From assembly GCA_049324415.1 (NCBI GenBank), contig JBMOOS010000012.1, forward strand, positions 16,851 to 80,850: a stretch of 64,000 nt of DNA, written 5' to 3'. Of the stretch, positions 1,849 through 30,092 are shown one piece after another. The position numbers and the translations under genes are program-made. The notes below the pieces were generated by a model that saw only the letters and a list, made by a program, of their open reading frames with translations, ran no database searches and was not told the DNA's origin. Each line of letters starts with the position of its first letter. Within the stretch, counting starts at the first letter, position 1. Source of the stretch: Pseudomonadota bacterium (lineage in GTDB: Bacteria > Pseudomonadota > Alphaproteobacteria > Sphingomonadales > CAKZYD01).

Positions 1849-1946
1849 CCCCACCCCCCATTCAACCCGGAAAAAACTGCGCGCCAGCCCTGCTCAAGGC
1901 TTCCCAAATCAAAGTCAACGCATTGAATAATAAAAGAAAAATATAT

Positions 1947-1962: not shown

Positions 1963-2037
1963 TCATGTCTTTGCAAGCGGACTTTGCCGGGCATCAACGC
2001 CGCGGCGGGACCGAAGACAGCCGAAGGAGAGCCGACG

Positions 2038-2868: not shown

Positions 2869-2904
2869 CGCGCGCGCAAGGAAGGCTGTCTTTGCCCGTA
2901 CGCG

Positions 2905-2943
2905 TGGATGGGCCGGCGGAACGCCGGCCCATCCATTTTTTTT
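2905..2943. terminator. bidirectional terminator between flagellin 2 and pseI
   Basis: TGGATGGGCCGGCG-GAA-CGCCGGCCCATCCA stem followed by T8 on the + strand, between convergent genes. Confidence 0.85.
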
Positions 2944-2951
2944 GGCGATCA

Positions 2952-4004: not shown

Positions 4005-5302
4005 CAGCGCACCTTGAACACCGGTTCCAGGGGAGGGCAGCGCAACCGGGCGCGCACGTTCTTGCTCTTGATCGCCATGGCCAGCACGTCCAGCACCTCG
4101 TCATAGGCATCGAGCAACCGCGCCACCTCGGCGGGGCCATGGGCGTAGGAAATATTGTGGGTGCCAAGGGTGAGGACGCCGCGGGCGAACATTTCCTGCA
4201 AGAAAAGGGTTTTCATCTCCCAGGCGGTGGCGCCCTCGCAGTCGGAGAGAAGAAAGAAGCTCCAGCTCGGGTGGCCGGCGACCTTGGCGATATGATGGAG
4301 GCCATGCGCCGCAATGCGCGCGCCAAGCCCTTCCATCACCTGGCCGCCGGTGGCGGCAAGGGTTTCCACCACTGGGGCGCTGGCGATCTTGTCGAGAACC
4401 GCGTTCGCTGCGGCGAGCGATAAAGTCTCGCCCCCCATGGTGAAGGAGAAAAAGATGTCCTCCATCAGCGCCATGATATCCGCACGGCCGCAGACCAAAG
4501 ACAAGGGAAAGCCGTTGGCAAGGCCCTTGCCGAAGGTGGCAAGGTCGGGGGTCACGCCGAACAGCTCCTGCGCGCCGCCCTTGGCGAAGCGAAAGCCGGT
4601 GATGGTCTCGTCGAAAATAAGGAGCGCGCCATGGCGGTGGGCGATGTCCCGCACTGCCGCGAGATAGCCGGGCAAGGGCTGGGTGGTGTTCATCGGCTCG
4701 AGGATGACGGCGGCGAAGGCGCCGGGATGGGCGCCGAGCATGTCATCGAGGCGCTCGGCGTCGTTATAGGGAAAGACGTGGGTCAAGGCGCGGGTCGCCT
4801 GCGGCACCCCTTTATGGCGGGCGGTGGCGCCGATATACCAGTCCTGCCAGCCGTGATAGCCGCACACCGCCACCCGGTCGCGCCCGGTATAGGCGCGGGC
4901 GAGGCGCACCGCGCCGGCGGTGGCGTCCGACCCGTTCTTGCCGAAGCGCACCCGCTCGGCGCATGGCACCATGGCGATGACTTTTTCCGCCACTTCCATC
5001 TCCAGGCGGTGGGGGAGGGAGAAGATGACTCCATTGTCCAGTTGCGCGCGCACCGCCCGGTCGACGTCGGCATCGCCATAGCCCAGCATGACGGCAAGCA
5101 GGCCGTTGACGAAATCCACATAGCTGTTGCCGTCGGCGTCCCACACGGTGGCGCCATGGCCGCGCTCGATGAAAAGCGGCGAGACGCCGGGGGGAAATTG
5201 CAGCCGTGACTTGGAGAAGGTCTGGCTGCCGAGCGGGATCGATCGTTCCGCCCGGGTGAGCCAGGCGAGCGAAGTGTCGAAACGGCGCGCCGGCGTGGTC
5301 AT
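4004..5302 (-). CDS. class III (glutamate-1-semialdehyde aminomutase-like) PLP aminotransferase
   Basis: 432 aa. GSDATAGAVRLARAYTGR and FDETITGFR...ATFGKGLANG motifs are typical of the GSA-AT-like fold. 1-nt overlap with the pseI start. Confidence 0.8.
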   Translation of the reverse strand: MTTPARRFDTSLAWLTRAERSIPLGSQTFSKSRLQFPPGVSPLFIERGHGATVWDADGNSYVDFVNGLLAVMLGYGDADVDRAVRAQLDNGVIFSLPHRLEMEVAEKVIAMVPCAERVRFGKNGSDATAGAVRLARAYTGRDRVAVCGYHGWQDWYIGATARHKGVPQATRALTHVFPYNDAERLDDMLGAHPGAFAAVILEPMNTTQPLPGYLAAVRDIAHRHGALLIFDETITGFRFAKGGAQELFGVTPDLATFGKGLANGFPLSLVCGRADIMALMEDIFFSFTMGGETLSLAAANAVLDKIASAPVVETLAATGGQVMEGLGARIAAHGLHHIAKVAGHPSWSFFLLSDCEGATAWEMKTLFLQEMFARGVLTLGTHNISYAHGPAEVARLLDAYDEVLDVLAMAIKSKNVRARLRCPPLEPVFKVR

Positions 5303-6063
5303 GGGCGGGGCTCCATGGCGTTGCGGGCCAGCGTCGCCTCGTAGCCGGCGTTGCGCGCGATGTGGCTGTTGAGGGCCGCGACATCGGGATGAGCGCCAAG
5401 AAAATCCAGCACGTCATGGCTGGAAAAGCGGGGGTTGTCGGGATAGAGCGCGGCGAACACCGCTTGCACGAAGGCAAGGTCTTCCGGCTCGTCGACGGTC
5501 CAGCGCTGGCTGGAGCGATCGATTTCGCTGGTCAGGTTGCCGATGGAAAAGCCCTTGGCGCGCCCGGTGATGTAACTGGTCACATGCTCCCGCTGCGATG
5601 GCTTGCTGGCGTTCTCCCAAGCCAGGTTGAGGGCCTGGCGGGTCATCGCCTCGACGTCGAGGCCGTCGGGATAGGTGGGGGGCAGGACATTGCTGCTATA
5701 GTCGTGGCGACCGGCCAAATGCAGCCGCACCACGGCGTCGATGAGGTCGGGGTCGATGAGCGGGCAGTCGCCGGTGAGGCGCACCACATGGTCGGCGTTG
5801 TAGCGCTTGGCGCATTGGTAGAAGCGGTCGAGCACGTCGTCGACGGCGCCGCGATAGCAATCGACTTTCAGCGCCTGGGCAAGAGCGGCCAGGGGGTCGT
5901 CCTCGGCCTGGCCCGAGGTGGCGATGACCAGCCGATCGAGAAGGCGGGCGCGGGCGATGCGCTCGATCTGACGGGCAAGCATGGGCTTGCCAAGGATCGG
6001 CGCCAAGACCTTGCCAGGCAAGCGGGTCGAGCCCATGCGCGCTTGCAGGACACACAGAATCAT
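5299..6063 (-). CDS. SpsF-type (COG1861-like) cytidylyltransferase
   Basis: MILCVLQARMGSTRLPGKVL N-terminus. Start trimmed to ATG 6063. ATGA overlap with the downstream aminotransferase. Confidence 0.75.
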   Translation of the reverse strand: MILCVLQARMGSTRLPGKVLAPILGKPMLARQIERIARARLLDRLVIATSGQAEDDPLAALAQALKVDCYRGAVDDVLDRFYQCAKRYNADHVVRLTGDCPLIDPDLIDAVVRLHLAGRHDYSSNVLPPTYPDGLDVEAMTRQALNLAWENASKPSQREHVTSYITGRAKGFSIGNLTSEIDRSSQRWTVDEPEDLAFVQAVFAALYPDNPRFSSHDVLDFLGAHPDVAALNSHIARNAGYEATLARNAMEPRP

Positions 6064-6082
6064 GAGGCAAGTCTCCCGAGCA

Positions 6083-6982
6083 TCATGAGGCACGTCTCTT
6101 AAGGTCGGCGGGCGCGGGCCATCGCCGGGGGTCAACGAGGCGCGCCTCGCTAATCGCAAGGCCGCCATAGTCGAGCGCGGCGACCGGCGCGGCGGCGGCG
6201 CCAGCCAGCTCCTCCAGCTCCTCGACGGTGGTGACGCCGAGAATGGCGACATCGATGCGCCCGCTCAGCCGGGCAAAGCCCAGCGCCGCCTCAAGCGGCG
6301 TTCTCCCAGCCGCCGCGGCCTGGCGGCGCAAGGCGGCAAGGGCAGGGCGCAGCTCGGCAAGATGGGCCGGCAGGCGCTCGGGGTCGGCGGCGATCACGCC
6401 TTGCAAGAGGAGGGAGCGGGCATGGACCTCTATGCCACGCCGGCGCAGCCGGTCCAGCGTGCCGTCATGCAACAGCCGCTGGTCGAGGATGCTGAAGGGT
6501 ATCTGGAGGATGTCGATGGGATAGCGGGCAAGCAGCGCGTCGACCTCGCCGCCGTTATAGACCGAGGCGCCAAGGCGGCAGGCAAGGCCATCCTCGCGCA
6601 CCTCCTCCATGGCCCGCCACAGCGCCGCGCCATGTTCGCCGAGAAGATCGCCCGCATGGTGGACGAGGAGACCCTCGAGCGGCGCTTTCAGCCGCGCCGC
6701 CGAGGCCTCGGCATCGCCGCGCACGGCCTCGATCGCCTGGCGCAAGGAAAGGCCGGTGAAATGCCGGGTCTTGCTGATGACGCGCAGGCCATGGGTCGCC
6801 GGCAGGTGGCGGCCGATCAAGGCCTCGGCCTCGCCATAGGCGGGCGCGGTGTCGATCAGCGCGACGCCGAGATCGCAAGCGCGGGCCAAAATCGCCGCGA
6901 CCATGTCCTCGCGCAGGCGGCCATGCTGGTTGGTCGCCCCATAGTCGAGACCGAACTGCGCCGTGCCCAACCCCAGTTTCAT
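6083..6982 (-). CDS. aldo/keto reductase family oxidoreductase
   Basis: MKLGLGTAQFGLDYGATNQHG...IDTAPAYGEAE pattern. Start trimmed to ATG 6982, which overlaps the pseC stop (ATGA). Confidence 0.75.
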   Translation of the reverse strand: MKLGLGTAQFGLDYGATNQHGRLREDMVAAILARACDLGVALIDTAPAYGEAEALIGRHLPATHGLRVISKTRHFTGLSLRQAIEAVRGDAEASAARLKAPLEGLLVHHAGDLLGEHGAALWRAMEEVREDGLACRLGASVYNGGEVDALLARYPIDILQIPFSILDQRLLHDGTLDRLRRRGIEVHARSLLLQGVIAADPERLPAHLAELRPALAALRRQAAAAGRTPLEAALGFARLSGRIDVAILGVTTVEELEELAGAAAAPVAALDYGGLAISEARLVDPRRWPAPADLKRRAS

Positions 6983-8169
6983 GGCAAGAGGCCCTCCAGG
7001 GCGTCGCACACCCGGTCGACGTCGGCGTCCTTCATGCCGGCGTGCAAGGGCAGGGACAGGCAGCGCTCGTAATAGCGCCAGGCGCCCGGCAGATCGGGCG
7101 CGCCATAGCGGGCGACGTAATAAGGCTGGTGGCTGACGGGAAAATAATGCACTTGGCTGCCGATGGCCTGGTCGCGCAAGGCCGCCATCACGGCGCGCCG
7201 GTCGCGCCCCAGGGCGGCGAAGTCGATGAGCGCCACCGCAAGATGCCAGCACGGATCGGCATGGGGCGCGCGGGCGATGAAGCGGATCCGGGGCGCCATG
7301 ACGGAAAGGCGCGCCTCATAGCGGCGGACGAGATGGCGGCGGGTCTCGGCGAAACGGTCGAGCTTGGCGAGTTGCGACAGGCCAAGGGCGCATTGCAGGT
7401 CGCTTGCCCGGTAATTATAGCCGAGCTCGGGCATTTCATAATACCAGGGATTGGCCTTGCCGTCGGCGGCAAGGCCATGGGCGGGGTACGCGAAATGGCC
7501 AGGCGCGCTCGCCATGCCGTGATGGCGCAGCCGGCGCATGCGCGCAGCAACCTCGGGGTCGTTGGTGGTGACCGCGCCGCCTTCGCCCATGGCGATGGTT
7601 TTCACCGGATGAAAGGAAAAGCAGGCGGCGGCGGAAGTGGCGCAATCGCCAACCCGCTGGCCGTTGCCGTAGCGGGTGCCCAGGGCGTGGCAGGCGTCCT
7701 CGACCAGGCGGGCGCCATGCTCGGTGGCGATTGCGCCAAGGCTGATAAGGTCGCATGGCTGGCCGGCGAGATGCACCGGGATGGCGAGCTTGACCGGCGC
7801 GCCGGCGCTGGCAATGGCGGCGTCAAGGGTGGCGGGCGTCATCAGGCCATTGTCGGGATCGACATCGGCGAACACCACTTCGGCGTCGCACATGCGCGCG
7901 GCATTGGCGGTGGCAAGGAAGGTGATCGCCGGGACGATGACGCGATCGCCAGGCCCCAGCCCTTGCGCAAGATAGGCAAGGTGCAGCGCCGCCGTCCCAT
8001 TGGCGCAGGCAACCGCATGGCGGGCGCCGAGCTGGGCGCACAGCGCTTCCTCAAAGGCGGCGACGGCGGGGCCGGTGGTGAGCAAGTCGCCCTGCAAGGC
8101 GGCGACCACGGCGGCGATGTCGTCGGCGTCTATCTGCTGCCGGCCATAGGGAAGAAAGGGCGCGCCCAT
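6979..8169 (-). CDS. pseC: UDP-4-amino-4,6-dideoxy-N-acetyl-beta-L-altrosamine transaminase (DegT/PseC family)
   Basis: LPYGRQQIDADDIAAVVAALQGDLLTTGPAV and FSFHPVKTIAMGEGG (PLP lysine). Start trimmed to ATG 8169. Confidence 0.85.
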   Translation of the reverse strand: MGAPFLPYGRQQIDADDIAAVVAALQGDLLTTGPAVAAFEEALCAQLGARHAVACANGTAALHLAYLAQGLGPGDRVIVPAITFLATANAARMCDAEVVFADVDPDNGLMTPATLDAAIASAGAPVKLAIPVHLAGQPCDLISLGAIATEHGARLVEDACHALGTRYGNGQRVGDCATSAAACFSFHPVKTIAMGEGGAVTTNDPEVAARMRRLRHHGMASAPGHFAYPAHGLAADGKANPWYYEMPELGYNYRASDLQCALGLSQLAKLDRFAETRRHLVRRYEARLSVMAPRIRFIARAPHADPCWHLAVALIDFAALGRDRRAVMAALRDQAIGSQVHYFPVSHQPYYVARYGAPDLPGAWRYYERCLSLPLHAGMKDADVDRVCDALEGLLP

Positions 8170-8176
8170 GGCCGGG

Positions 8177-9244
8177 TCACTGGTCGAGGCCAAGGAGGGC
8201 GCGCATGCCCGCGACGCTGAGCCAATCGTCATTGCGGTCGGAGGAATAGGTGAAATCCTCGGCGACGCTGACCGCCCCTTGCGCTTCGTAGGAAACCCGG
8301 CTCCACCAGGCGAAAGCGGGCTCGATGACGTAGCGCCCGTCGAGCTCGATGGTGGTGCGGGCGTCATCGAGCGGCACCATCACCTCATGCAGCTTCTCGC
8401 CTGGACGAATGCCAACGATATGGGTTTTCATCCCCGGCTTCAGCGCCTCCACCAGGTCGGTGATGCGCATCGAGGGGATTTTCGGCACGAAGACTTCGCC
8501 GCCGTTCATCATCACCAGCGACGACATGACGAAATCGACGCCCTGCTCGAGGGTGATCCAGAAGCGGGTCATGCGCGGGTCGGTGATGGGCAGGCTGTCC
8601 GCGCCTTCCCGCAACAGCTTTTGGAAGAAGGGCACGACCGAGCCGCGGCTTCCCACCACATTGCCATAGCGGACCACGGCAAAGCGGGTGCCGCTTTCCC
8701 CGGCAAGATTGTTGGCGGCGACGAAAATCTTGTCCGAGGCAAGCTTGGACGCGCCGTAAAGGTTGATGGGGTTGGCGGCCTTGTCGGTGGACAGGGCGAT
8801 GACCTTCTTCACCCCGGCCCGGATCGCGCCGTAAACCAGGTTCTCCGCCCCCAGCACATTGGTGCGGATGCATTCGAAGGGGTTGTACTCGGCCGCCGTC
8901 ACATGCTTGAGCGCCGCCGCGTGGATGACATAGTCGACGCCGCGCAGCGCCATCTCGAGCCGGCGGCCATCGCGCACGTCGCCAATGAGATAGCGTAAAG
9001 TGCCTTCATGGGGCCGGAAGGCGGGATCGCCTTGCATTTCATATTGCTTGAGCTCGTCGCGCGAATAGATGGCGACGCGGCGCGGCTGATAGCGCTTGAG
9101 CAAGGTGCGGATGAAGGCCTTGCCAAAGGACCCCGTGGCGCCGGTGATGAGGATATTGGCGCCGTTGAAGATATTGGCGCAGGCGGGATTCCAGCCCTCC
9201 ACCGCTTCGCTGCGGCGTTTATTGTCCACTCGGTCCATGCCCAT
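8177..9244 (-). CDS. pseB: UDP-N-acetylglucosamine 4,6-dehydratase, inverting (PseB/FlaA1 family)
   Basis: FNGANILITGATGSFGKAF...YSRDELKQYEM and extended-SDR features. First gene of the six-gene operon. Confidence 0.88.
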   Translation of the reverse strand: MGMDRVDNKRRSEAVEGWNPACANIFNGANILITGATGSFGKAFIRTLLKRYQPRRVAIYSRDELKQYEMQGDPAFRPHEGTLRYLIGDVRDGRRLEMALRGVDYVIHAAALKHVTAAEYNPFECIRTNVLGAENLVYGAIRAGVKKVIALSTDKAANPINLYGASKLASDKIFVAANNLAGESGTRFAVVRYGNVVGSRGSVVPFFQKLLREGADSLPITDPRMTRFWITLEQGVDFVMSSLVMMNGGEVFVPKIPSMRITDLVEALKPGMKTHIVGIRPGEKLHEVMVPLDDARTTIELDGRYVIEPAFAWWSRVSYEAQGAVSVAEDFTYSSDRNDDWLSVAGMRALLGLDQ

Positions 9245-16972: not shown

Positions 16973-17485
16973 ATGGCGCAAGACGCGGCAGCCGATGACC
17001 TGGCCGAGGGCTTGGAACAGGAAGGTCCGGCGCGAAAACGCTTCAGCGGCAAGAAGATCGTGCTTTTCGCGGCGCCGGTGGTGTTGCTTTTGCTGGCGCT
17101 TGCCGTTGCCTTCTTTCTTGGCCTCTTCGGCGGCGAGGAGCCGGCGGAGGAAGCCGCGGCGCTCGCCAAGGAGCCGACCCAGGTTCTTTTCTATGACGTT
17201 CCGGAAATGCTGGTCAATCTCAATACCGGCGAGAAGAAAGCGACCTATTTGAAGCTCAGCGTCGCGCTGGAGGTCGATCGGCAAAGCACGCTTGCCACGC
17301 TCGAGGCGAAGCTGCCGCGCGTCGTCGACAATTTTCAGATTTATTTGCGCGAGCTCCGGCTTGAGGACCTTTCCGGATCCGCTGGCATGTTCCGCTTGAA
17401 GGAAGAGCTTTTGCGCCGGGTCAACGAAGCGGTGGCGCCAGCGCAGGTGAAGGACGTATTGTTCAAGGAAATGCTCGTGCAATGA
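16973..17485 (+). CDS. fliL: flagellar basal-body-associated protein FliL
   Basis: N-terminal TM helix, then FYDVPEMLVNLNTGEKKATYLKLSVALEV...FKEMLVQ. Confidence 0.9.
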   Translation: MAQDAAADDLAEGLEQEGPARKRFSGKKIVLFAAPVVLLLLALAVAFFLGLFGGEEPAEEAAALAKEPTQVLFYDVPEMLVNLNTGEKKATYLKLSVALEVDRQSTLATLEAKLPRVVDNFQIYLRELRLEDLSGSAGMFRLKEELLRRVNEAVAPAQVKDVLFKEMLVQ

Positions 17486-17522
17486 CGCGCTGATGGCGCG
17501 TGGCGCATGGACGATAGGGCTT

Positions 17523-18662
17523 ATGGCAGACGAAAAACAAGGACCCGACGACGAGGCGGTCGCCGCCGAATGGGAGGCGATGGCCGGCGAGGGCCAGGGG
17601 AAAAGCGTCGATGACGAGGCGGTCGCTGCCGAATGGGAGGCGATGGCCGGCGGCGACGAGGATGAGGAGGCGCTAGGCGGCGGCGCGGCGGGCCGGGTCC
17701 TCGACCAGAACGAGATCGACAGCCTGCTCGGCTTTGACGGCGATGACGAAGACAAGAACCGCCAGGGCATTCACGCCATCATCAATTCGGCGCTGGTCTC
17801 TTACGAGCGCCTGCCGATGCTCGACATCATCTTCGATCGCGTGGTGCGGATGATGACGACCTCGTTGCGCAATTTCACCTCGGACAATATCGAGGTCTCG
17901 CTCGACAACATCAATTCGGTGCGTTTTGGCGATTATCTCAATTCCGTGCCGTTGCCGGCGATGATGTCGGTGTTCCGGGCCGAGGAATGGGACAATTATG
18001 GCCTGATGACGGTGGATTCCTCGCTCATCTATTCGATTGTCGATGTGCTCCTGGGCGGGCGCCGGGGCACCGCGGCGATGCGGATCGAGGGCCGGCCCTA
18101 CACGACCATCGAGCAATCGCTGGTCGAGCGCATGATCGCGGTGATCTTGAAGGACCTGTCGGGCGCTTTCGAGCCGCTCAGTCCGGTCACCTTCACGTTC
18201 GACCGTTTGGAGACCAACCCGCGTTTCGCCTCGATCGCCCGGCCGTCCAACGCCGCCATCCTGATCAAGCTCAGGATCGACATGGAAGATCGCGGCGGCC
18301 GGCTGGAGATGCTGTTCCCCTATGCCACCCTGGAGCCGATCCGCGAGCTTCTCCTGCAACGCTTCATGGGCGAGAAATTCGGCCGGGACTCGATCTGGGA
18401 AACCCATTTGGCGACGGAGCTGTGGCACACCCGCGTGTCCCTCGACGCCGTGCTCGACGAACAAGTGATGTCGCTGCGCAAGATCCTCAACTTGAAGGTT
18501 GGCGATACCCTCGTCTTCAACGCCACCGAGCGCACCCCGGTGGTGCTGCGCAGCGGCAGCATCGCTTTGATGAGCGGGCGCATGGGCCGCTCCGGCCAGC
18601 ATGTCGCGATCAAGGTCAACGCCGTCACCACCACGGCAAGGAGTTCCAGCAATGACGCTTGA
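17523..18662 (+). CDS. fliM: flagellar motor switch protein FliM
   Basis: CheY-binding motif LDQNEIDSLLGF plus FliM middle and C-terminal domains. Start at 17523 or 17493 is unresolved. Confidence 0.92.
   Translation: MADEKQGPDDEAVAAEWEAMAGEGQGKSVDDEAVAAEWEAMAGGDEDEEALGGGAAGRVLDQNEIDSLLGFDGDDEDKNRQGIHAIINSALVSYERLPMLDIIFDRVVRMMTTSLRNFTSDNIEVSLDNINSVRFGDYLNSVPLPAMMSVFRAEEWDNYGLMTVDSSLIYSIVDVLLGGRRGTAAMRIEGRPYTTIEQSLVERMIAVILKDLSGAFEPLSPVTFTFDRLETNPRFASIARPSNAAILIKLRIDMEDRGGRLEMLFPYATLEPIRELLLQRFMGEKFGRDSIWETHLATELWHTRVSLDAVLDEQVMSLRKILNLKVGDTLVFNATERTPVVLRSGSIALMSGRMGRSGQHVAIKVNAVTTTARSSSNDA
17550..17652 (+). repeat. in-frame 63-bp-period duplication in the fliM 5' region
   Basis: 40-nt blocks at 17550-17589 and 17613-17652 differ at one base. 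They encode DEAVAAEWEAMAG twice. Confidence 0.9.
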
Positions 18663-19059
18663 TCTTGTGACCAGCGCGGTTCTTGGCCTTTTGCTGCTGG
18701 CCATGATCGTCAGCGCTTGGCGTCTTGAGCGCCGCTTGAAAAGCGTGCGCGCCGGCAAGGAGGAGTTGCAGGCGTTGATCGAGGGCTTGAACAAGGCGAC
18801 GGAAAGGGCGCAGGCCAGCATCGTGGAGATGCGCGCAGCGGCAAAACAGTTCGAAGGCACGTGGGAGGGTAGCGTTGGCAAGGCGCGGGCGCTCGCGGAT
18901 GAATTGGCGCTCATCACCCATGCCGGGGAAAACCTCGCCAACCGCTTGGAACAGCGCCTCGCCGACTTGCCGGATGCGGCGGCGCGGCCGTCACCCGTGC
19001 CCCCCGCGGCTAAAACCGAGGACAATGACGTCGTGCGCGCCTTGCGCGGCGTTCGCTAG
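18652..19059 (+). CDS. small N-terminally anchored coiled-coil protein (possibly DUF6468-like)
   Basis: 135 aa. AAGGAG RBS; start overlaps the fliM 3' end by 11 nt. One TM helix, then helical heptad-like sequence. Confidence 0.6.
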   Translation: MTLDLVTSAVLGLLLLAMIVSAWRLERRLKSVRAGKEELQALIEGLNKATERAQASIVEMRAAAKQFEGTWEGSVGKARALADELALITHAGENLANRLEQRLADLPDAAARPSPVPPAAKTEDNDVVRALRGVR

Positions 19060-19192: not shown

Positions 19193-19876
19193 ATGGCACT
19201 GCCACGAATACGCCTGCTGCCGAGCTTGATGATTGTCGGCGCCTTCGCCCTTGGCATCCAGGTCGTTGGCCTTGTCGAAGGCTTCGACGCGACTGGCGGG
19301 CCGGCGCGGGCGCAGGAGGGCGCTGACGCCAAGACCGGCGCGGCGGCGCCGGAGGAAGGCGAGGCCCTCCACGATGGCGCCATGCCGGACATGCCCCTGG
19401 CGCCCGATGCATCGGCGCCCGCGCAAGACCCTGGCGCCTTCGATCCCGCCTATATGAGCCCCTCGGAGATCGCGCTGCTGCGCGACCTTGCCCAGCGGCG
19501 CACTATGTTGGACGAGCGCGAGCAGCAGATCGCCTTGCGCGGACGCTTGCTCGAAGCGACGGAAAAACGCATCGATGGCAAGATCGGCGAGCTTAAGGCT
19601 CTGGAAGAGCGCATCAAGGGCCTCATTAACCAGCATGACGAAGCGCAGACGAAGCAGATCGACAATCTGGTCCGCGTCTATGAGAAAATGAAGCCCAAGG
19701 ACGCCGCGCAAATCTTCGAGCGTCTCGACCTCGACATCCAGATCGCCGTCGCGCAGCGCATGAAGGAGGCCAAGATGGCGCCGATCATGGCGGCGATGGC
19801 GCCGGAAAGCGCGAAAACCCTGAGTACGGCCTTGGCCAGCCGCATCGAGCTTCCGGGCTTGAACAGCGAAAGTTGA
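19193..19876 (+). CDS. MotE-family flagellar protein (MgtE-N-like domain)
   Basis: N-terminal TM helix, coiled coil, and C-terminal VYEKMKPKDAAQIFERLDLDIQIAVAQRMKEAKMAPIMAAM typical of MotE/FlbB-type proteins. Confidence 0.7.
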   Translation: MALPRIRLLPSLMIVGAFALGIQVVGLVEGFDATGGPARAQEGADAKTGAAAPEEGEALHDGAMPDMPLAPDASAPAQDPGAFDPAYMSPSEIALLRDLAQRRTMLDEREQQIALRGRLLEATEKRIDGKIGELKALEERIKGLINQHDEAQTKQIDNLVRVYEKMKPKDAAQIFERLDLDIQIAVAQRMKEAKMAPIMAAMAPESAKTLSTALASRIELPGLNSES

Positions 19877-20012
19877 CATAAGGGACAGGCTTTACGCCCC
19901 TTTAACCCGGCTTCCCTATGGTTGACGGCATCGCGAAGGACGCTGGCATGATGCGTTCTGGCATGCCCGGCCGTGGAACAGCAGGCGGCGGCCCAGTGGA
20001 AGAAGGCAGGAC

Positions 20013-20666
20013 ATGAGTAGCAATTCCGTATCGGTCAGTTTGCAATCGCGCCTGGCGGCGCTGCGCGCCGAACGCGGCGGCAATGTCGCGATCGACGAGG
20101 TGGGGGATGTGGTCACGTCCCTGGTTTCGACGCTGCAGGGCGATTTCGAGGCCACCACCTTGCGCTTCAGCGCCGAGATCGAGCGGCTGATGGAATTCAT
20201 CACCACGGCCAAGGAAGAAATCGCTTCCATCAACCCCAACACCTTGTCGAAGCGCGATTTGCCCGGCGCCGCCGACGAGCTTGACGCCATCGTCGCCGCC
20301 ACCGAGGATGCCGCCGGCAAGATCATGGACGCCGCCGATGAAGTCCAGGCCATCGCCGCCGGGCTCGACGGCGCGCTCGGCGACAAGCTGCTCGCGGTGT
20401 CCACCAAGATTTTCGAGGCATCGAGTTTTCAGGACATCACCGGGCAACGGGTGACCAAGGTGGTGCGGGTCCTCAAGCTGGTGGAGGAACGCCTCGCGCT
20501 CCTTGCCCAGACCATTGGCGATGATCACATCGAGGAAAAAGCCGCCATCGAGCGCGACAAGGACGGGGTCGTGGTCAAGGACGAGGATCTGCTGCACGGC
20601 CCTCAGCTCGAGGGCGACGGCAACAACCAAGACGATATCGACGCCCTGCTCGCCAGCTTCGATTAG
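20013..20666 (+). CDS. cheZ: CheZ-family CheY-P phosphatase homologue
   Basis: Catalytic-helix motif SSFQDITGQRV (compare E. coli DFQDLTGQ) and an acidic C-terminal peptide QDDIDALLASFD resembling the CheY-binding tail. Confidence 0.75.
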   Translation: MSSNSVSVSLQSRLAALRAERGGNVAIDEVGDVVTSLVSTLQGDFEATTLRFSAEIERLMEFITTAKEEIASINPNTLSKRDLPGAADELDAIVAATEDAAGKIMDAADEVQAIAAGLDGALGDKLLAVSTKIFEASSFQDITGQRVTKVVRVLKLVEERLALLAQTIGDDHIEEKAAIERDKDGVVVKDEDLLHGPQLEGDGNNQDDIDALLASFD

Positions 20667-20674: not shown

Positions 20675-21286
20675 ATGGCCATGGAGTCCTTTCCTGGCCC
20701 GGAAAACCATGGCGCGGCCAGTGTAAACACCCTGGTTTCGCTGTATCTTTTGTTGCTGACCTTCTTCATCGCCTTGCAGGCCCTGGCCGAACATCAGCCC
20801 CTCGACGCCCGGCGCACGCTGGACAGCGTGCGCGCCGCCTTCGGCGACAAGCGCGTCATCATTCCCAGAATCGCGCCCGATCTACCCTTTGAGGGCAGCT
20901 TTGAAGCGGAACTGGAAAGGCTCATGCGACAGGCCTTCGGCATCGCCGCCCGCTCTGCCGGCGGCGCCGCGCGGGAGGAGGTGGGCATCGCCATTGATCC
21001 GGCCTATTTCTTCGCGCCTGCCAGTATTCGGCTTCGCGGCGACCGGCAGGGCGCGCTTGGCGCGGTTGCCCGCTATCTTGCCACCTCGCCCAAGGGCGAG
21101 GCGCGGCGCTTGTCCATCCTCGCCATGGGCGCGGATGGCCTTGCCACGCAGCGCGCCATCGCGCTGGGGCTCGCCTTGCAGGCGCAGGGCGCGCCGTCGG
21201 AGAGCATCGTCCTGGCGCGCCGCCCCGATGCCGAGGACGGGCTTGTTTTGCGCTTTGCCAGACGGCCGGCGGAGCCGCGCCCGTGA
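20675..21286 (+). CDS. MotB-like protein 1 (TM lacks the conserved Asp; degenerate OmpA-like C-terminus)
   Basis: TM segment LVSLYLLLLTFFIAL resembles the MotB TM. The C-terminal half follows the OmpA-like pattern without canonical PG-binding residues. Confidence 0.55.
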   Translation: MAMESFPGPENHGAASVNTLVSLYLLLLTFFIALQALAEHQPLDARRTLDSVRAAFGDKRVIIPRIAPDLPFEGSFEAELERLMRQAFGIAARSAGGAAREEVGIAIDPAYFFAPASIRLRGDRQGALGAVARYLATSPKGEARRLSILAMGADGLATQRAIALGLALQAQGAPSESIVLARRPDAEDGLVLRFARRPAEPRP

Positions 21287-21972
21287 CGCGGAGGTCCAGC
21301 GGTAGCCTCATTGGCGGGCTCGGCGCCGGCTGGTCGCTGTTGCTCGCCGACCTTCTTGCCCTGCTCTTGACTTTTTTCATCCTGATATTTTCCTATACCT
21401 CCTTCGACCAGGCCTCCTGGTCGGCGATGACCCAGGCGCTGTCGGCGCAATTGAACGACAAGGCGGCGCCCGCCCGCCCGGACGCGTCGGGAACCCCCGA
21501 GGAGAGGGCGGGCGGCCTTTCCCTTGATTATGTCACGCGGCTTCTCGAAGAGCGGCGCGCCGACAACAAGGTGCTCGCCCAGGCGACGCTGATCCGCAGC
21601 GAGGACCGCCTGACGCTGCGCCTCCCCCACAATGCGCTTTTCACTGCCGAAGACGCTGTGCAACCCGATATCCATGCCGCCCTTGGCGAGCTCGGCGTGA
21701 CTTTCGCCCATTTAGGCCATGGTCTTGAAATCACGACGCATTTGCCGCCCGGCATGACGCCGGCCGCAGCCTGGCCGTTGGGCCTGGCGCGGGCGGAAAG
21801 GGTGGCGCAGGCCTTGCGACAGGCCACCGTCTTGCCCGACGTCACGCTCGTGTCGGCGGCGGACGCGGATTTTTCGTTATTCCTAACCAATTATGAACTA
21901 GCTGCGCGCTATGCTCTGGCGGACCGCGTGGAAATCAGCATTTTGCGCCGCGGCGCAGCGACGGAAAAATGA
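21283..21972 (+). CDS. MotB-like protein 2 (TM retains Asp; OmpA-like C-terminus)
   Basis: WSLLLADLLALLLTFFILIFS matches the MotB YADLMTLLLAFF pattern, including Asp. C-terminal GLARAERVAQAL is OmpA-like. GTGA overlap with the upstream gene. Confidence 0.6.
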   Translation: MTRRSSGSLIGGLGAGWSLLLADLLALLLTFFILIFSYTSFDQASWSAMTQALSAQLNDKAAPARPDASGTPEERAGGLSLDYVTRLLEERRADNKVLAQATLIRSEDRLTLRLPHNALFTAEDAVQPDIHAALGELGVTFAHLGHGLEITTHLPPGMTPAAAWPLGLARAERVAQALRQATVLPDVTLVSAADADFSLFLTNYELAARYALADRVEISILRRGAATEK

Positions 21973-24900
21973 ATACGGATAAAGGCTTGCAAAAGAAGAT
22001 AAGACGCGCGTCGCGGCTGGCCGCTGTTCTTCTGCTTGCCCTTTTTTCGCCCGCCATGGCGATGGCTGCGCCGGTGGCGGTGCGGGGCGGCGACCATGAG
22101 GGCTATAGCCGGATCGTGTTCGACTGGCCGGCGCTGGTGCCCTATGCGGCATCCATGGACGGCGACAGCATCGTTCTTACCTTCGACAGCGCCGATGACC
22201 CCAAGCTTGACGGCCTCGCCCGCCAGCGCCTTATCAACATCCGCGCAGTAAGCGCGCGGCGCGACGCGGACAGGGTGACGGTACGCGTGCAGACCGCCGT
22301 GGGCGTTGGTCTGCGCCACTTCCGTGACGGGCGTAAAGTGGTGGTCGATGCGCTCGTCCCGCGGCCCGCCATGGCCAAGCCCGAGACTGCCTCCCCGGCG
22401 GTCGGCGAGGATGCTCCGAAATTGGCCGAGATCGCTGCCCTGGGCCGCGCCGCCGCGCAAATGAACGCCGCCGACCACGCGGCCGCGGTGCGCCGCGCTG
22501 AAGCGGCCGAGGCGGCGGCGGAAAAAGCGAAAGCCGAAGCCGCGGCCGCCGCCAGGGCGGAGGCGGAAGCGAAGGCGGCGGCGGAGGAGGAAGAAGCACG
22601 CCGGCAGGCCGAGGCGGCGGCGCAAGCGGCCGAGCAAGCAGCGCTTGTCGCGCAGGCGCCGCAACATCTCGTCGTCGGCGTGCGCCCCTTGCAAAACGGC
22701 GTTCTGCTTCGCTATCCCTGGGCGCGGACGGTGGCGGCGGCGGCGTTCAAGCGCGGCGCCCAGCTTTGGGTGGTGTTCGAGGCCTTGGCGACGGTCGATC
22801 ATGGCGCGCTTGTCACGGCGATGGGCGAGCGCATTCGCGACGCGACCCAGGTGCCGCATCAAACGGCGACCATCCTGCGCTATCGCATTCGCGTCGATCA
22901 GAATGTCGGCATGCGCCGCGAGGGCACGCAGTGGGTGGTCGAGGTCAAGGATACGCTCGTTCGCCCGCGCCAGCCGATGACGGCGGTGCGGCAATTGGAT
23001 CCGCGCGGCGGGGCGCGGCTGTTCATCAACCTTGAAGAAGGCGGCGCGACCCTCATCGCCGATGACCCGGAAGTGGGCGACCGGCTGTTCATCGTGCCGG
23101 TCGTACCCTCGGGAAGGGGCCTTGCCGAGGAGCAGCGGTTTGCCGAATTCGAGCTGCTTGCCAGCGCCCAAGGGGTCGCCGTCTCGGCCTTGTCCGATCA
23201 CGTCCTGGTGGAGCGCGATCGCGACGGGGTGGTGATCGCGACGGGCGACGGGCTCGAGGTCTCCGGCAAGGGGCGCGAGGACGCCGTCGAGGAAATCGCC
23301 CCTGCGCCGGCAACGCGCATTTTCGATTTCGAGGCCTGGCGGGCGCTTGGCGGGTCGGGCGAGACGACCCAGCGTTACCACCACTTGCTCTATGCTCTGT
23401 CGCGGGCGCGCAAGGATGCGCGCAATGCCCGGCGCTGGGATCTGGCGCGCTTCCTGTTGGCGGGCGGACGCGCCACCGATGCCTATGGCGTGCTCGCCGT
23501 CATGGGCAGGGACGAGCCGGCGCTTGAAGACAGCGCCGAGTTCCGCGCGGTGCGTGGCGTCGCGGCATTGAACCTGCGGCGTTATGATGAAGCGGCGGGG
23601 GATTTGGCCATGGCTTCCCTCGATGACGAGCCGGACGCTTATTTATGGCGTGCCCTGGTGGCCGAGGCGCAAGGCCAGCCGCAAGCCGCGCTTGACGCCT
23701 TCCGGCGGGGAACGGATGTCATCTCTCTCTACAGCCATGATGACCGGGCGCGCTTCAGCCTGGCGGCGATGCGCGCCGCGCTGGCCTTGGGCGAGAACGA
23801 ATTCGTCGAGCGCGAATTGGCATTGCTCGAGACCTTGACGCTGTCGCCGCACCGCCGCGCTGAAGCGCAGTTCCTGCAAGCGCGCCTGTCGCAAGCCTAT
23901 GCCGACGTGGAAACCGCCAAGGCGACTTATGCGCGCCTTAGCGACGAAGCGCCGCGCCATATCGCCGCGCGCGCCCGCTTCGAAGCGATCAAGCTCGCCA
24001 CCGCCAGCGGCGCGATCACCCTGGGCGAGGCGATCAACGGCCTTGAAAGGCTGCGCTATGCCTGGCGCGGCGATGAATTCGAGCTCGATCTTTTAGAGCG
24101 CCTCGGCGAACTCTATATCGCTACCGGAGACTACCGGACCGGACTCGAGGCCTTGCGCCAGGCGGTGAGCTATTTCGCCGATTCGACGCGCACCCGCGCC
24201 ATCGCCAGACGCATGGAGGCGATTTTCCGCGATCTTTTCCTGTCCGACAAGACGCAAGCGATGGAGCCTTTGCAAGCGCTTGCCCTCTACTATGATTTTC
24301 GCGAGCTGACGCCGCTCGGCGCGGAGGGCGACACCATGGTCCGTCGGCTCGCCGATCGGATGGTCGCTGTCGATCTCCTCGATCGCGCCGCCGGCCTCCT
24401 CGAGCATCAAGTGAAATATCGCCTGGAGGGAGTGGCGCAAGCCGACGTCGCCACGCGCCTGGCGATGATCCATCTGATGAACGGGCGCGCCAGTGATGCC
24501 CTGGGCGTTTTGCGGGCGACCCGCAATGTCGCCGCCATGCCGGAGGATTTGCGGCGGCGGCGCCGGCAATTGGAAGCGCGCGCGCTCATCGACCTTGGGC
24601 AGTTCGCCGAGGCGGAAAGCCTTCTTGAGGAAGACGCCACGCCCCAAGCCACGCTGTTGCGCGCCGATCTCTATTGGGGCGACAAGGCGTGGACCAAGGT
24701 CGTTGCCGCCAGCGGCGCGGTCCTTGGCGAGCGTTGGCGCGACGATGCCCCGCTCGGCGAGGACGAGCGGCGGCATCTGTTGCGCATCGCGGTGGCGCTG
24801 GCGATGACCGACGACAAGGCCGGTCTGCGCCAGTTGCGCCAGCAATACGCCAAGGCGATGGCAAGCGGCGCCTTGTCGGAAGCCTTTGACGTCATCACCA

Positions 24901-25028
24901 ATACCGGGACGCCCAATCCGCGCGACCTTAAGGCCGCGGTGGCCAGTCTCGCCGACATCGATCGGCTGCAAAGCTTCCTCGCCTCCTACCGCGATGCCTT
25001 GTCGCAAGGCGGCGCCAGCCAATCCTGA
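21969..25028 (+). CDS. secreted 1019-aa protein: N-terminal beta domain, Ala/Glu/Lys-rich TolA-like linker, long TPR-like helical-repeat region
   Basis: Signal peptide ...LFSPAMAMAAP. Low-complexity AEAAEAAAEKAKAEAAAAARAEAEAKAAAEEEEARRQAEAAAQAAEQ. C-terminal 550 aa are helical repeats. ATGA overlap with MotB-like 2. Confidence 0.65.
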   Translation: MNTDKGLQKKIRRASRLAAVLLLALFSPAMAMAAPVAVRGGDHEGYSRIVFDWPALVPYAASMDGDSIVLTFDSADDPKLDGLARQRLINIRAVSARRDADRVTVRVQTAVGVGLRHFRDGRKVVVDALVPRPAMAKPETASPAVGEDAPKLAEIAALGRAAAQMNAADHAAAVRRAEAAEAAAEKAKAEAAAAARAEAEAKAAAEEEEARRQAEAAAQAAEQAALVAQAPQHLVVGVRPLQNGVLLRYPWARTVAAAAFKRGAQLWVVFEALATVDHGALVTAMGERIRDATQVPHQTATILRYRIRVDQNVGMRREGTQWVVEVKDTLVRPRQPMTAVRQLDPRGGARLFINLEEGGATLIADDPEVGDRLFIVPVVPSGRGLAEEQRFAEFELLASAQGVAVSALSDHVLVERDRDGVVIATGDGLEVSGKGREDAVEEIAPAPATRIFDFEAWRALGGSGETTQRYHHLLYALSRARKDARNARRWDLARFLLAGGRATDAYGVLAVMGRDEPALEDSAEFRAVRGVAALNLRRYDEAAGDLAMASLDDEPDAYLWRALVAEAQGQPQAALDAFRRGTDVISLYSHDDRARFSLAAMRAALALGENEFVERELALLETLTLSPHRRAEAQFLQARLSQAYADVETAKATYARLSDEAPRHIAARARFEAIKLATASGAITLGEAINGLERLRYAWRGDEFELDLLERLGELYIATGDYRTGLEALRQAVSYFADSTRTRAIARRMEAIFRDLFLSDKTQAMEPLQALALYYDFRELTPLGAEGDTMVRRLADRMVAVDLLDRAAGLLEHQVKYRLEGVAQADVATRLAMIHLMNGRASDALGVLRATRNVAAMPEDLRRRRRQLEARALIDLGQFAEAESLLEEDATPQATLLRADLYWGDKAWTKVVAASGAVLGERWRDDAPLGEDERRHLLRIAVALAMTDDKAGLRQLRQQYAKAMASGALSEAFDVITNTGTPNPRDLKAAVASLADIDRLQSFLASYRDALSQGGASQS

Positions 25029-25835: not shown

Positions 25836-26128
25836 GCAGGGTCCTCGTCGCGCGGGGTGGGCGCGGCCTTGCCGCTTTCGATGAGGAGGGTCGAGTTGGG
25901 GCCGAGCAGCAAAAGATGCCGGCGCTGGTCGCAGGCGACAAGGACCAGCTTGTGGCGCACGTCGATGGCGCGGGTCTCCACCACCTCAAGCCGCGCCTTG
26001 GCGCCAGGGCGGGAGCCGTCCCATAAGCGCGCCAATCCCATGCGCCGGACCAGCCACACGCCCAGGGCGATCATCGCCAGAACGAGCCCGAGGGCGCCAA
26101 CGCTGCGCAAAAGGTCGAGCGCGCTCAT
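25832..26128 (-). CDS. fliO: flagellar biosynthesis protein FliO
   Basis: 98 aa with a single TM helix. [28 protein letters not shown] pattern. Overlaps the fliP start. Confidence 0.8.
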
Positions 26129-26424
26129 GGCGTATCGCCACCCCGCCGGCTTTCGGCATAGACATGCGACAACACCACGGCGACGGCGTGCACCGCCTCG
26201 AGGGGAATGGGGCTGAGCTCGTCGAACTGGGCCAGCAGCGCTGCGAGCTCCGCGTCCTCGCGCACCTTGACGCCCTCGGCGAAGGCCACCTCCAGGATCT
26301 TCTCAGCGCGCCAGCCCTGGCCGCTGGCGGTGATCATCGGGTGTGCCGCTTCCTCGCGCGCGGCGATGGCGACGGCGGTGCGGCGTCGATGATCGGATGT
26401 GTTGCTGTCGGGGTCGGCGGTCAT
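26125..26424 (-). CDS. stand-alone FlhB C-terminal-domain paralogue (EscU/YscU/FlhB-CTD family, lacks NPTH)
   Basis: 99 aa, alignable by eye to FlhB residues after the NPTH site in this window (TAVAI / PMITASGQG..AEKILEVA / IPLEAVHAVAVVLSHVY). ATGA overlap with fliO. Confidence 0.75.
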   Translation of the reverse strand: MTADPDSNTSDHRRRTAVAIAAREEAAHPMITASGQGWRAEKILEVAFAEGVKVREDAELAALLAQFDELSPIPLEAVHAVAVVLSHVYAESRRGGDTP

Positions 26425-29012: not shown

Positions 29013-30092
29013 ATGGCCGAGCAGAATGACGACGCCCAGAAGACCGAGGAGCCCACCTCCAAAAAGCTGGAGGACGCCTATAAGAAAGGCGAGGCGCCGC
29101 GCAGCCATGAAGTCCGCACCTGGCTCATGCTCTTGACCGCTACGCTCGCCTACGCGCTTTTCGCCTCCCGTTCCGGCGGCAGCATCACCGAGCGTTTGAC
29201 CGTCTATCTTGCTCAGTCCCACGCCATCAGCCTCGACGGCGGCGCCATCCTGGCCGACCTGCGCGCTCTCGGTTGGGCGATATTGCGCGCCCTGGGGATT
29301 CCCATCCTGATGCTGATCGCCGCCGCTTTCGCCGGAACCCTCATTCAAGCCAAGGTGGTGCTTTCGGGCGAGAAGATGAAACCTAAATTGTCAAAAATCT
29401 CGCCCCTATCGGGATTGAAACGGCTGTTTTCCATCCAGTCCGTCTCGGAACTGGGCAAGTCGGTCGCCAAGCTGGTCATCATCGGCGGCGCCAGCATCCT
29501 TCTTTTGTGGCCCGAGCGGGGCCGCCTCATCGAGGTTCTCGGCCTCTCCTTTCCCGACATCGTGACGCTGGTCAACGCCATGGCCCTGCGGCTTGGCATC
29601 GCCGTTGTCTCCATCATGACCGTCGTCGCGCTCCTCGACTACGCCCTGCAGCGCCAGCAGTTCATGAAGCGCATGCGCATGACCAAGCAGGAGGTCAAGG
29701 ACGAGCACAAGCAGCTTGAAGGCGACCCGCAGGTGAAGGGGCGCATCCGGCAAATCCGCATGCAGCGGGCCAAGCAGCGGATCACCAAGGCGGTGCCGGA
29801 ATCCGATGTGGTGATCACCAACCCGACCCATTATGCAGTCGCCCTAAAATACAAGCATGGCGAGATGGCGGTTCCCCTGCTCAAGGCCAAGGGGGTGGAT
29901 CATCTGGCGGCGAAAATCCGCGAGCTTGCCAAGAAGCACGATATTCCCATCGTCGAAAACCCGCCCCTTGCCCGCGCCATCTATGCCACGGTCGACGTCG
30001 ATGAGGAAATCACCCCGCAGCATTATAAGGCGGTGGCGGAGGTCATCGGCTATGTGCTGCGGCTGCGCGGCAAGCTCGTCAAGCGCCGTTAA
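29013..30092 (+). CDS. flhB: flagellar export switch protein FlhB
   Basis: N-terminal QKTEEPTSKKLEDAYKKGEAPRS and the autocleavage motif VVITNPTHYAVAL. Confidence 0.95.
   Translation: MAEQNDDAQKTEEPTSKKLEDAYKKGEAPRSHEVRTWLMLLTATLAYALFASRSGGSITERLTVYLAQSHAISLDGGAILADLRALGWAILRALGIPILMLIAAAFAGTLIQAKVVLSGEKMKPKLSKISPLSGLKRLFSIQSVSELGKSVAKLVIIGGASILLLWPERGRLIEVLGLSFPDIVTLVNAMALRLGIAVVSIMTVVALLDYALQRQQFMKRMRMTKQEVKDEHKQLEGDPQVKGRIRQIRMQRAKQRITKAVPESDVVITNPTHYAVALKYKHGEMAVPLLKAKGVDHLAAKIRELAKKHDIPIVENPPLARAIYATVDVDEEITPQHYKAVAEVIGYVLRLRGKLVKRR

Follow-up and report, generated by a model that had tools for sequence, protein, structure and literature searches.

The window analyzed here is a stretch of 64,000 nt from a Sphingomonadales genome (lineage CAKZYD01, Alphaproteobacteria; assembly GCA_049324415.1, contig JBMOOS010000012.1, positions 16,851 to 80,850 of the forward strand). 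Three adjacent genes on its + strand, hereafter A, B and C, lie at the downstream end of a co-directional block of flagellar genes. We consider that this trio is probably the stator-and-scaffold segment of an alphaproteobacterial flagellar superoperon of the Caulobacter/Fla2 type, in which B would be MotB, C would be a MotK-like protein and A would be a duplicate of MotB without the channel Asp. The features of the three genes are listed below by their positions in the window (aa, amino acids; TM, transmembrane; TPR, tetratricopeptide repeat; AF2, AlphaFold2; pLDDT, predicted local distance difference test score).

20675-21286, + strand: protein A, an apparent Asp-less MotB paralogue of 203 aa (A-family profile; hhalign against the B family)
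20723-20788, + strand: predicted MotB-type TM helix of A, residues about 17-38, with the Ser22 codon (20738-20740) at the position of the MotB channel Asp
20975-21268, + strand: predicted OmpA-like domain of A, residues about 101-198 (AF2 pLDDT 82-95 over residues 101-200; Foldseek)
21283-21972, + strand: protein B, a predicted MotB-family stator B subunit of 229 aa, with a GTG start over the stop of A (Pfam MotB_plug, PDB profile, names of relatives)
21328-21396, + strand: predicted TM helix of B, residues about 16-38, with the Asp23 codon at 21349-21351; the plug helix follows at residues about 43-58
21583-21948, + strand: predicted OmpA-like domain of B, of the peptidoglycan-binding type (AF2 pLDDT above 90; Foldseek)
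21969-25028, + strand: protein C, a putative secreted AMIN-like and TPR protein of 1019 aa, apparently of the MotK/CC_2058 (PflA-like) kind (85 relatives, domains, position)
21969-22070, + strand: predicted Sec-type signal peptide of C, residues about 1-34 (...SPAMAMA/AP, read from the translation)
22074-22358, + strand: putative AMIN-like beta domain of C, residues about 36-130 (family-level matches)
22440-22652, + strand: Ala/Glu/Lys-rich linker of C (no invariant or near-invariant column over residues 127-258)
22672-23348, + strand: conserved middle region of C, residues about 235-460 (invariant residues)
23377-24998, + strand: TPR-like helical region of C, residues about 470-1010 (Pfam TPR_1, TPR_8 and TPR_16 in the window copy)

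The three open reading frames (ORFs) are joined by overlaps. The stop codon of A and the start codon of B share GTGA at 21283-21286, with GGAG 8 nt upstream, and the stop codon of B and the start codon of C share ATGA at 21969-21972. The codon-position GC contents of all three are gene-like, and the GC content at third codon positions (GC3) is 0.77-0.80, as in the neighboring genes. An earlier reading of this locus from the sequence alone (the sequence-only reading) had reported both overlaps, and had placed the trio behind fliL, fliM, a small membrane protein gene, a MotE-like gene and a CheZ-like gene. Both overlaps were found as described, and 4-nt overlaps recur in the relatives. The upstream gene order was borne out by Pfam and NCBIfam matches, the small membrane protein being a member of DUF6468.

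The A-B-C order is conserved across many alphaproteobacterial orders. Among the carriers of the trio are Eilatimonas milleporae DSM 25217, Kordiimonas gwangyangensis DSM 19435, Novispirillum itersonii ATCC 12639 and the complete genome CP030885.1; Eilatimonas, Kordiimonas and N. itersonii can be cultured. A relative of C was found in at least 581 species genomes (pattern scan, one genome per species, from 10 closer sequences), and gene arrangements were counted in the best 80 of the genome loci from this C-based scan, with 10-kb flanks (loci are designated by L and a number). In 52 of these 80 loci the order is MotE-(CheY)-(CheZ)-A-B-C, with protein identities of 20-45%. Two Asp-bearing copies precede C in 3 of the 80 loci, a single Asp-bearing MotB-like gene precedes C in 2 (L010 and L032), and in 10 (Ferrovibrio, Tagaea and others) MotE or CheZ is followed directly by C, as in Caulobacter. 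The rest were too short for the arrangement to be judged. An additional 16 loci, from metagenomes and from distant representatives of B, all contain the A-B pair, with C directly after it where the contig reaches. Thus, in the 52 genome loci and in these 16, A is always directly upstream of B, and in most loci A and B are either both present or both absent, the exceptions being L010 and L032. Exact 4-nt overlaps were counted at 18 of 46 A-B junctions and at 28 of 52 B-C junctions, on the basis of heuristic start calls. The link between the trio and flagellar loci, proposed in the sequence-only reading, held in every locus examined. The single genes of the two exceptions (L010:9261-9989 and L032:9339-9965, from Sphingosinicellaceae M-36 and Pedomonas sp., respectively) are divergent Asp-bearing MotB-like genes, and these loci have no A copy. 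The B-type ORF at L064:8811-9542 has no TM start and is read on in frame from CheY-like residues, owing to a frameshift, a fusion or an error in the assembly of the metagenome-derived genome.

The assignment of B was examined at the levels of sequence, family profile and model. The TM helix of the window protein, LLLADLLALLLTFFIL, carries the channel Asp23 within LLLADLLALLLTFF. Window B matched Pfam MotB_plug (E 4e-7; 29.9 bits against a cut-off of 24) and, by itself, matched the TM/plug region of MotB chains in the PDB. A word-indexed homology search with B alone returned 2 proteins, and an exhaustive HMMER search with B of 1.84 billion representatives returned 286 proteins at E <= 1e-10; among the best 150 of these 286, nearly all are about 240 aa in length and most aligned over nearly the full length. 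All 55 B relatives matched MotB_plug and 52 of the 55 matched OmpA, with W17, D23, F31 and F32 invariant. Wherever the TM motif could be located in a B-position protein of the loci, it contained the Asp. In the PDB, the profile of the B family (55 sequences) matched chains of MotB, PomB and MotS in the periplasmic domain as well as in the TM/plug region, with E values from 8.6e-39 to 1e-25 (MotB 6ysf, 8.6e-39; PomB, 5.5e-36). The name given to B relatives at NCBI is flagellar motor protein MotB, as in Eilatimonas milleporae and Kordiimonas sediminis. The AF2 model of B (pLDDT 85) has helices at residues 14-38 and 43-58, and the overall best Foldseek E value for its OmpA-like domain was 1.5e-8, with H. 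pylori MotB at 8.6e-8, PomB at 2.7e-7 and MotS at 3.2e-7. Judged by these profiles and residues, B is a bona fide MotB-family stator B subunit.

With MotB, PomB and MotS, B has in common the TM helix with the invariant Asp, the plug helix, the OmpA-like domain and the family consensus GHTD...NWELSxxRA. It differs from them in that B is short, no motA lies beside the gene, and the peptidoglycan motif is degenerate in the window copy. The consensus of the B family keeps this motif as GHTDP...SNWELSLxRA (D in 32 of 53 relatives and R in 50 of 53). The corresponding residues of window B (21730-21800, residues about 150-171) read THLPP...AAWPLGLARA, in which Trp and Arg-Ala are kept. The loss suggests that the wall anchoring of window B may be weak, or may depend on partners or be taken over by C. 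The degenerate peptidoglycan residues pointed out in the sequence-only reading are thus real in window A and window B, but they are not a property of the B family, which mostly keeps the motif. A reading of B as ZorB of a defense system was rejected: the ZorAB match appeared only at rank 46 of the Foldseek search with B, no PADLOC match was obtained for A, B or C, and the context is purely flagellar.

Protein A resembles B in architecture. Its TM helix, LVSLYLLLLTFFIAL, has Ser22 in alignment with Asp23 of B, and each of the two residues lies 8 residues before an FF pair. The A sequence alone gave only marginal matches. A profile of the A family, built from 37 positional homologues taken from the loci, found PomB (E 2.5e-14) and MotB (E 7.6e-12) ahead of generic OmpA-like proteins in a search of the PDB, and when the A and B families were compared by hhalign the probability was 99% (E 6e-18) over 198 columns. 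Among these 37 relatives, 28 matched MotB_plug and only 6 matched OmpA. The AF2 model of A (pLDDT 74; helix 13-40) contains a TM helix, a short helix and an OmpA-like domain as in B, and Foldseek placed the OmpA-like domain beside YiaD (E 2e-7) and MotB-C of H. pylori and Salmonella (E about 1e-5). The sequence-only reading had regarded A and B as MotB-like proteins with a TM helix and an OmpA-like half, with the channel Asp kept in the second and lost in the first. The profile-PDB, hhalign and AF2/Foldseek comparisons all agree with this description, with Asp23 in B and Ser22 in A.

The loss of Asp is a general feature of the A lineage. The TM pattern of the family is (F/L)xSL(Y/F)LxLLAFFIxLNSxS, and S22, L23, L25, L27, L28, F30 and F31 are invariant among 22 database relatives. 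All of the database relatives of A are unnamed or are called 'hypothetical protein'. Ser, Ala or Gly replaces Asp in 49 of 52 A-lineage proteins, Asp being kept only in L027, L031 and L053. The canonical GHTD/NWELS peptidoglycan motif is not conserved in the A family, column counts showing no conserved D, N or S at the motif positions. The mean column identity of A is 23% overall. Compared in pairs, the TM helices of the A family are on average 57% identical and the periplasmic domains 21%; the corresponding means for B are 63% and 33%. The membrane part of A is therefore nearly as constrained as that of a working MotB, which suggests that the TM helix of A has a specific partner in the membrane.

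In a rough neighbor-joining tree, A and B each form one clade, and the Asp-bearing upstream copies of L027, L031 and L053 lie inside the A clade. This topology suggests that A arose from an old duplication, and that Asp was then lost in most lineages. The three Asp-bearing copies at the A position (L027:8518-9255, L031:4795-5493 and L053:6907-7641) read WxxTFxDL and adjoin the Asp-less A of L038 in the tree. On profile and tree evidence, A is a MotB duplicate without the channel Asp and a new element of this cluster. It has the architecture and the TM face of MotB, PomB and MotS, but Ser, Ala or Gly stands in place of Asp and the canonical peptidoglycan motif is absent; A thus lacks a defining MotB feature, the channel Asp. 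We found no description of an Asp-less MotB paralogue or of a MotB pair in the open-access papers searched. A MotY-like reading of A was tried and rejected, since the profile gave E 0.27 for MotY against 2.5e-14 for PomB.

For C, a word-indexed search gave 85 full-length relatives with E values down to 1e-224. The best matches come from Kordiimonas, Sphingomonadales, Sneathiellales, Ferrovibrio, Rhodospirillaceae, Novispirillum and SAR116; neither Caulobacter nor Cereibacter is among the best 80 of the at least 581 matches. By inspection, the N-terminus of C has a basic region, the hydrophobic core LAAVLLLALF and an AxA site. The next domain matched PF24837 (AMIN-like) in 14 of 31 relatives, with a best E of 4.5e-7, and PF11741 (AMIN) in 2 of 31; the match of the C profile to the N-terminal region of PilQ was weak (E 0.06). 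In the relatives, the linker region is Pro/Ala-rich and variable in length. The middle region contains the invariant residues A258, F260, R262, W267, F270, R304, W322, D366, P367, G370, D371, G384, G402 and W457. In the TPR part, W699, R700, G701 and D702, and further on F777, R778, E779 and L780, are invariant, and the family signatures are LERLRYAWRGD and ALALYYDFRELTP. Many TPR models matched across the family, and the C profile matched TPR proteins and BamD in the PDB. The picture of C as a secreted beta-domain and TPR protein of the stator-scaffold kind, which the sequence-only reading had drawn, is consistent with these results. Its signal peptide, beta domain and TPR repeats were recovered, the beta domain being probably AMIN-like by the matches of its relatives, and the conserved middle region, which had gone unmentioned, has to be added. 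The spacer that had been likened to TolA domain II is instead an unconserved low-complexity linker: no TolA match was obtained in Pfam, NCBIfam or the PDB.

In MotK of Cereibacter sphaeroides Fla2 (UniProt Q3IY86), a signal peptide is followed by an AMIN-like N-terminal part, and the rest of the protein is TPR-like (PMC10954123; PMC11870540; PMC13023049). MotK is needed for rotation, binds MotE and MotB2, and is localized in a MotA2/MotB2-dependent manner. Caulobacter CC_2058 (UniProt Q9A6M9), the mutant of which is Mot-, has been proposed as a distant MotK homologue (PMC10954123). In papers from 2024 to 2026, MotK and CC_2058 are described as PflA-like proteins that pair with the MotE/FlgY E-ring and bind MotB, and later work equates the pairs CC_2059/CC_2058, MotE/MotK, MotE/MotC, FlbB/FlcB and FlgY/PflA as the E-ring and its spokes. 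C has in common with MotK and CC_2058 the Sec signal peptide, a disordered linker and a long TPR-like part and, as far as the matches of its relatives go, the N-terminal AMIN-type domain, and, like theirs, its gene ends a fliL-(fliM)-pflI/DUF6468-motE block. This position downstream of motE in the fliL-fliM-DUF6468-motE block was observed in the window and in more than 60 loci. There are also differences. MotK has 652 aa whereas C has 1019 aa and contains a conserved middle region, and the gene before motK is motA2 in C. sphaeroides, whereas the MotB pair stands there in the window and motE is followed directly by CC_2058 in Caulobacter. On its anatomy, its family-level domain matches and its operon position, C appears to belong to the MotK/CC_2058 kind. 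The sequence-only reading had held that none of the three proteins could be assigned to a described flagellar component; this no longer applies to B, placed in the MotB family, or to C, given its MotK/CC_2058-like anatomy and operon position.

Two plasmid loci contain proteins related to C in other surroundings. On the Azospirillum brasilense plasmid NZ_CP059453.1 (L085:10726-15028), a C homologue of 794 aa (E 7.5e-19), annotated 'tetratricopeptide repeat protein', is flanked by flgF and by an annotated motA-motB pair, which follows it directly; this locus has no MotE, A or B-type genes. On the Erythrobacter aureus plasmid NZ_CP031358.1 (L084:8523-13638), fliL-fliM-DUF6468, a hypothetical gene and a second FliL-family gene on the opposite strand were found, together with a protein of 548 aa that matches C over the TPR half only, and without a MotB-like pair.

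The genes upstream of the trio are as follows.

16973-17485, + strand: fliL, the first gene of the co-directional block (Pfam FliL, E 4e-21; NCBIfam FliL, E 1.5e-46)
17493-18662, + strand: fliM (Pfam FliM, E 9e-67, and FliMN_C; TIGR01397, E 9e-92)
18601-19059, + strand: gene for a DUF6468 small membrane protein (Pfam DUF6468, E 3e-19), at a position shared by 64 loci
19193-19876, + strand: gene for a MotE/FlgY-type protein, a candidate E-ring protein (Pfam MgtE_N, E 1.2e-5; NCBIfam collar_FlbB, E 7e-5)
20013-20666, + strand: cheZ-like phosphatase gene (Pfam CheZ, E 4e-14, above the cut-off)

MgtE_N is the published marker of FlgY/MotE homologues, and the protein at the DUF6468 position has been named PflI in the C. 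sphaeroides operon (PMC10954123). As listed, the DUF6468 ORF overlaps the end of fliM by 62 nt. The listed start (18601) is doubtful because an internal ATG at about 18652 would yield a short overlap like those of relatives (4 nt in L001); the true start probably lies downstream. At the N-terminus of FliM (17493-17720), an acidic stretch, DDEAVAAEWEAMAG, is present twice ahead of the peptide LDQNEIDSLL, which resembles the motif that binds phosphorylated CheY; this duplication was not reported by Tandem Repeats Finder. Between motE and cheZ the window has a gap of 136 bp (19876-20013), so that cheZ stands without an adjacent cheY. In relatives, a gene for a CheY-type response regulator of 128-129 aa lies between the motE-like gene and cheZ (L001:7444-7830, L086:3277-3666, L088:3039-3425 and L090:8070-8459).

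On the other strand, 3' of the trio, are fliP, fliO and a stand-alone gene for the FlhB C-domain, followed by flgB, flgC, fliE, fliQ, fliR and flhB. The stand-alone gene (26125-26424, - strand) encodes a protein of 99 aa that consists of only the C-terminal (Bac_export_2) domain of FlhB; it adjoins fliO/fliP and is kept at this position in about 38 related loci, and the full-length flhB is present additionally at 29013-30092. The flagellar genes span about 0.9-30.1 kb of the window and end at flhB. This region also encodes FlgI and FlgA/G/F, with a weak FlgN-like match below the Pfam cut-off. Two flagellin genes (928-1764 and 1984-2868) stand beside a block of genes for NeuB, a class-III aminotransferase, a cytidylyltransferase and DegT (region 928-8367), which looks like an island for the glycosylation of flagellin with nonulosonic acid. 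On the 3' side of flhB are a hybrid histidine kinase gene, recA, alaS, icd and other housekeeping genes. An AcrB-like protein is also encoded in the window.

No motA was found in the window by phmmer with MotA of E. coli and of Azospirillum (six-frame ORFs, E <= 0.01), and no MotA/ExbB-type protein emerged when nearly all of the window's large ORFs were scanned with Pfam. The absence of motA from the window, as reported in the sequence-only reading, is thus correct. Searches of the plasmid collection by tblastn with B and with the B-family consensus gave no match. The window is also without fliF, fliG, fliN, flhA, fliI, flgE, flgK and flgL. The flagellar regulon is therefore split, with its remaining loci elsewhere in the genome, and the absence of motA from this locus is uninformative because so many other essential flagellar genes are outside the window as well. 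In the Fla2 operon of C. sphaeroides, fliL2-pflI-motE-motA2-motK, it is motA2 that occupies the slot, and motB2 is not part of the operon as described (PMC10954123). Since the invariant Asp, the MotA-contacting TM helix and the plug are all retained, B would still work with a MotA. Its MotA partner would be encoded elsewhere in the genome; we infer both the existence and the location of this gene.

The scheme that we favor builds on the directly observed family assignments, residue patterns, synteny and coupling; all of the interactions among A, B, C, MotA and MotE in it are inferred. The TM helix of B, with its proton-binding Asp, and the plug helix would be inserted into the pentamer of MotA, and the OmpA-like domain of B would reach the cell wall or the scaffold. 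C would be exported by Sec and would consist of a probably wall-binding AMIN-like domain, a flexible linker, the middle region and a TPR solenoid. By analogy with MotK, the most likely binding partners of C are the periplasmic part of MotB and the ring of MotE/FlgY, the gene of which lies three genes upstream; by binding them, C would recruit stator units to the rotor or keep them in place around it. A, as an old MotB duplicate, would be co-translated with B through the conserved stop/start overlap and most likely works in the membrane beside B, either as one half of an A:B heterodimer in the MotA ring or as an adaptor that serves the scaffold and does not conduct.

Several facts weigh against our assignment of the trio to a stator-and-scaffold segment. 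In the peptidoglycan-binding motif of window B, the Asp, Asn and Ser are missing, and window C itself falls below the threshold of the AMIN models. C was set beside MotK and CC_2058 through their published descriptions, and those two proteins were themselves linked by structure and not at the level of BLAST (PMC10954123). With the same two phmmer queries, no motA was found within 10 kb of C in 96 loci (the 80 genome loci and the 16 additional ones). A MotB without Asp would also be expected to poison stators, as the D32 mutants of E. coli do, and it is thus uncertain that A co-assembles with the stator. The absence of motA from the window and from the flanks of C in the 96 loci is what would be expected if A, B and C formed a periplasmic motor or energy-transducing module that is independent of MotA and distinct from the normal stator, much as the sequence-only reading had suggested in speaking of a MotA-less motor module. 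We consider such a module very unlikely. B keeps the invariant Asp, the TM face and the plug, hallmarks that matter only in contact with MotA, and we know of no role for them outside a MotA-type pentamer. No other polytopic MotA/ExbB/TolQ-like protein was found in the cluster, other essential flagellar genes are likewise outside the window, and the equivalent slot of the C. sphaeroides operon holds motA2. The split regulon deprives the missing motA of its weight, and the invariant Asp and the TM helix of B argue for a MotA partner. The alternative suggestion of an inactive stator-B pair recruited by the TPR protein may hold for A only. It is likewise very unlikely that A is a decaying duplicate without function. 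The loss of Asp and of the peptidoglycan motif and the mean column identity of 23% could be taken as decay, but intact A ORFs are present in 52 species-level genomes of many orders and in the 16 additional loci, the TM helix and the translational coupling are conserved, and the GC3 of A (0.80) is gene-like and close to that of its neighbors.

The role of A within the stator-and-scaffold segment may be accounted for in two ways. In one, A and B replace the MotB homodimer in the MotA pentamer, so that the stator core would have one Asp and one Ser, with B serving the wall and A serving the C scaffold. This heterodimer is conceivable but, in our judgment, doubtful. It would explain why the TM helix of A, including the LLxFF face, is nearly as conserved as that of B; the adjacency of A and B with conserved 4-nt overlaps would favor equimolar synthesis; the two genes are co-present or co-absent in most loci; and the Asp that persists in the A-lineage copy of three genomes fits two B-type subunits placed side by side. 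A precedent for adjacent paralogous single-TM B subunits with one A-type pentamer is provided by the gliding motor of Myxococcus, which uses two different TolR-like subunits, AglQ and AglS, together with AglR, and by the tandem ExbD paralogues of some TonB systems. To our knowledge, however, both subunits keep the acidic residue in those systems, neither of which is flagellar or has OmpA-like domains. Against the heterodimer, the two Asp residues are used in alternation in current 5:2 models, a MotB without Asp exerts a dominant-negative effect in E. coli, and L010 and L032 get by on one Asp-bearing copy, A being absent there. In the other account, A lies outside the MotA ring, as a non-conducting relic anchored in the membrane, through which the C scaffold or the MotE ring would be held at the inner membrane, in the manner of the TM-anchored TPR protein PflB of Campylobacter or of the MotX/MotY T-ring of Vibrio. 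We hold this adaptor to be a tentative explanation of the same standing. It is in keeping with the loss of both Asp and the canonical peptidoglycan motif, with the position of the A gene two upstream of C with only B between, and with the fast evolution of the periplasmic domain of A (21% identity), which would be natural in a protein-protein contact specific to the lineage; the published models, too, call for a partner of the PflA-like spokes close to the membrane. A plain anchor, however, would not need a TM helix of 57% identity with invariant S22, L23, F30 and F31. In addition, the profile of A ranks MotB/PomB far above MotY, and genomes with C but without A and B in the cluster exist (Ferrovibrio, Tagaea).

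Other motors provide points of comparison for the proposed scaffold. PflA/PflB of Campylobacter jejuni and Helicobacter pylori, FlcA/FlcB of Borrelia and MotC of Sinorhizobium meliloti are, like C, periplasmic proteins with beta-sandwich/AMIN and TPR parts; they join the FlgY/FlbB/MotE ring to the stators and are needed for the recruitment or stability of stators. The likeness of C to these proteins is structural and functional only, as no sequence relationship was detected in the profile searches that were run, and, unlike the present cluster, their operons contain no MotB paralogue. PflB has a TM helix of its own, whereas the TM-anchored partner would be A in the present system. In the T-ring of Vibrio, MotX, a Sel1/TPR-like repeat protein, and the OmpA-like MotY hold the PomB stators, which is the same logic as that of C and A. 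MotY, however, is soluble and secreted and has a different N-terminal domain; A appears to be a duplicate of MotB and not a relative of MotY.

Two of the three proteins can thus be assigned, at the strength given above, to described components of the flagellar motor. B and C are of known kinds, and the value of their identification lies in annotation: the members of the C family, present in at least 581 species genomes, are labelled only 'tetratricopeptide repeat protein' or 'hypothetical'. The tight coupling of the MotB and MotK-like genes in this cluster provides independent support for the published interaction between MotK and MotB2. What is new is A, a MotB duplicate that is widespread and unnamed and lacks the proton-binding Asp. 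If A sits in the MotA ring, it would bear on the question of whether both Asp residues of the 5:2 stator are needed. Somewhat more speculatively, a naturally heterodimeric 5:1:1 stator may then exist in much of the Alphaproteobacteria (Kordiimonadales, Sneathiellales, Rhodospirillales-like lineages, SAR116 and others), in which the OmpA-like domain of A would dock the stator to the MotK/PflA-like scaffold and not to peptidoglycan. If A is an adaptor, it would be a missing membrane-proximal part of the stator scaffold of alphaproteobacteria.

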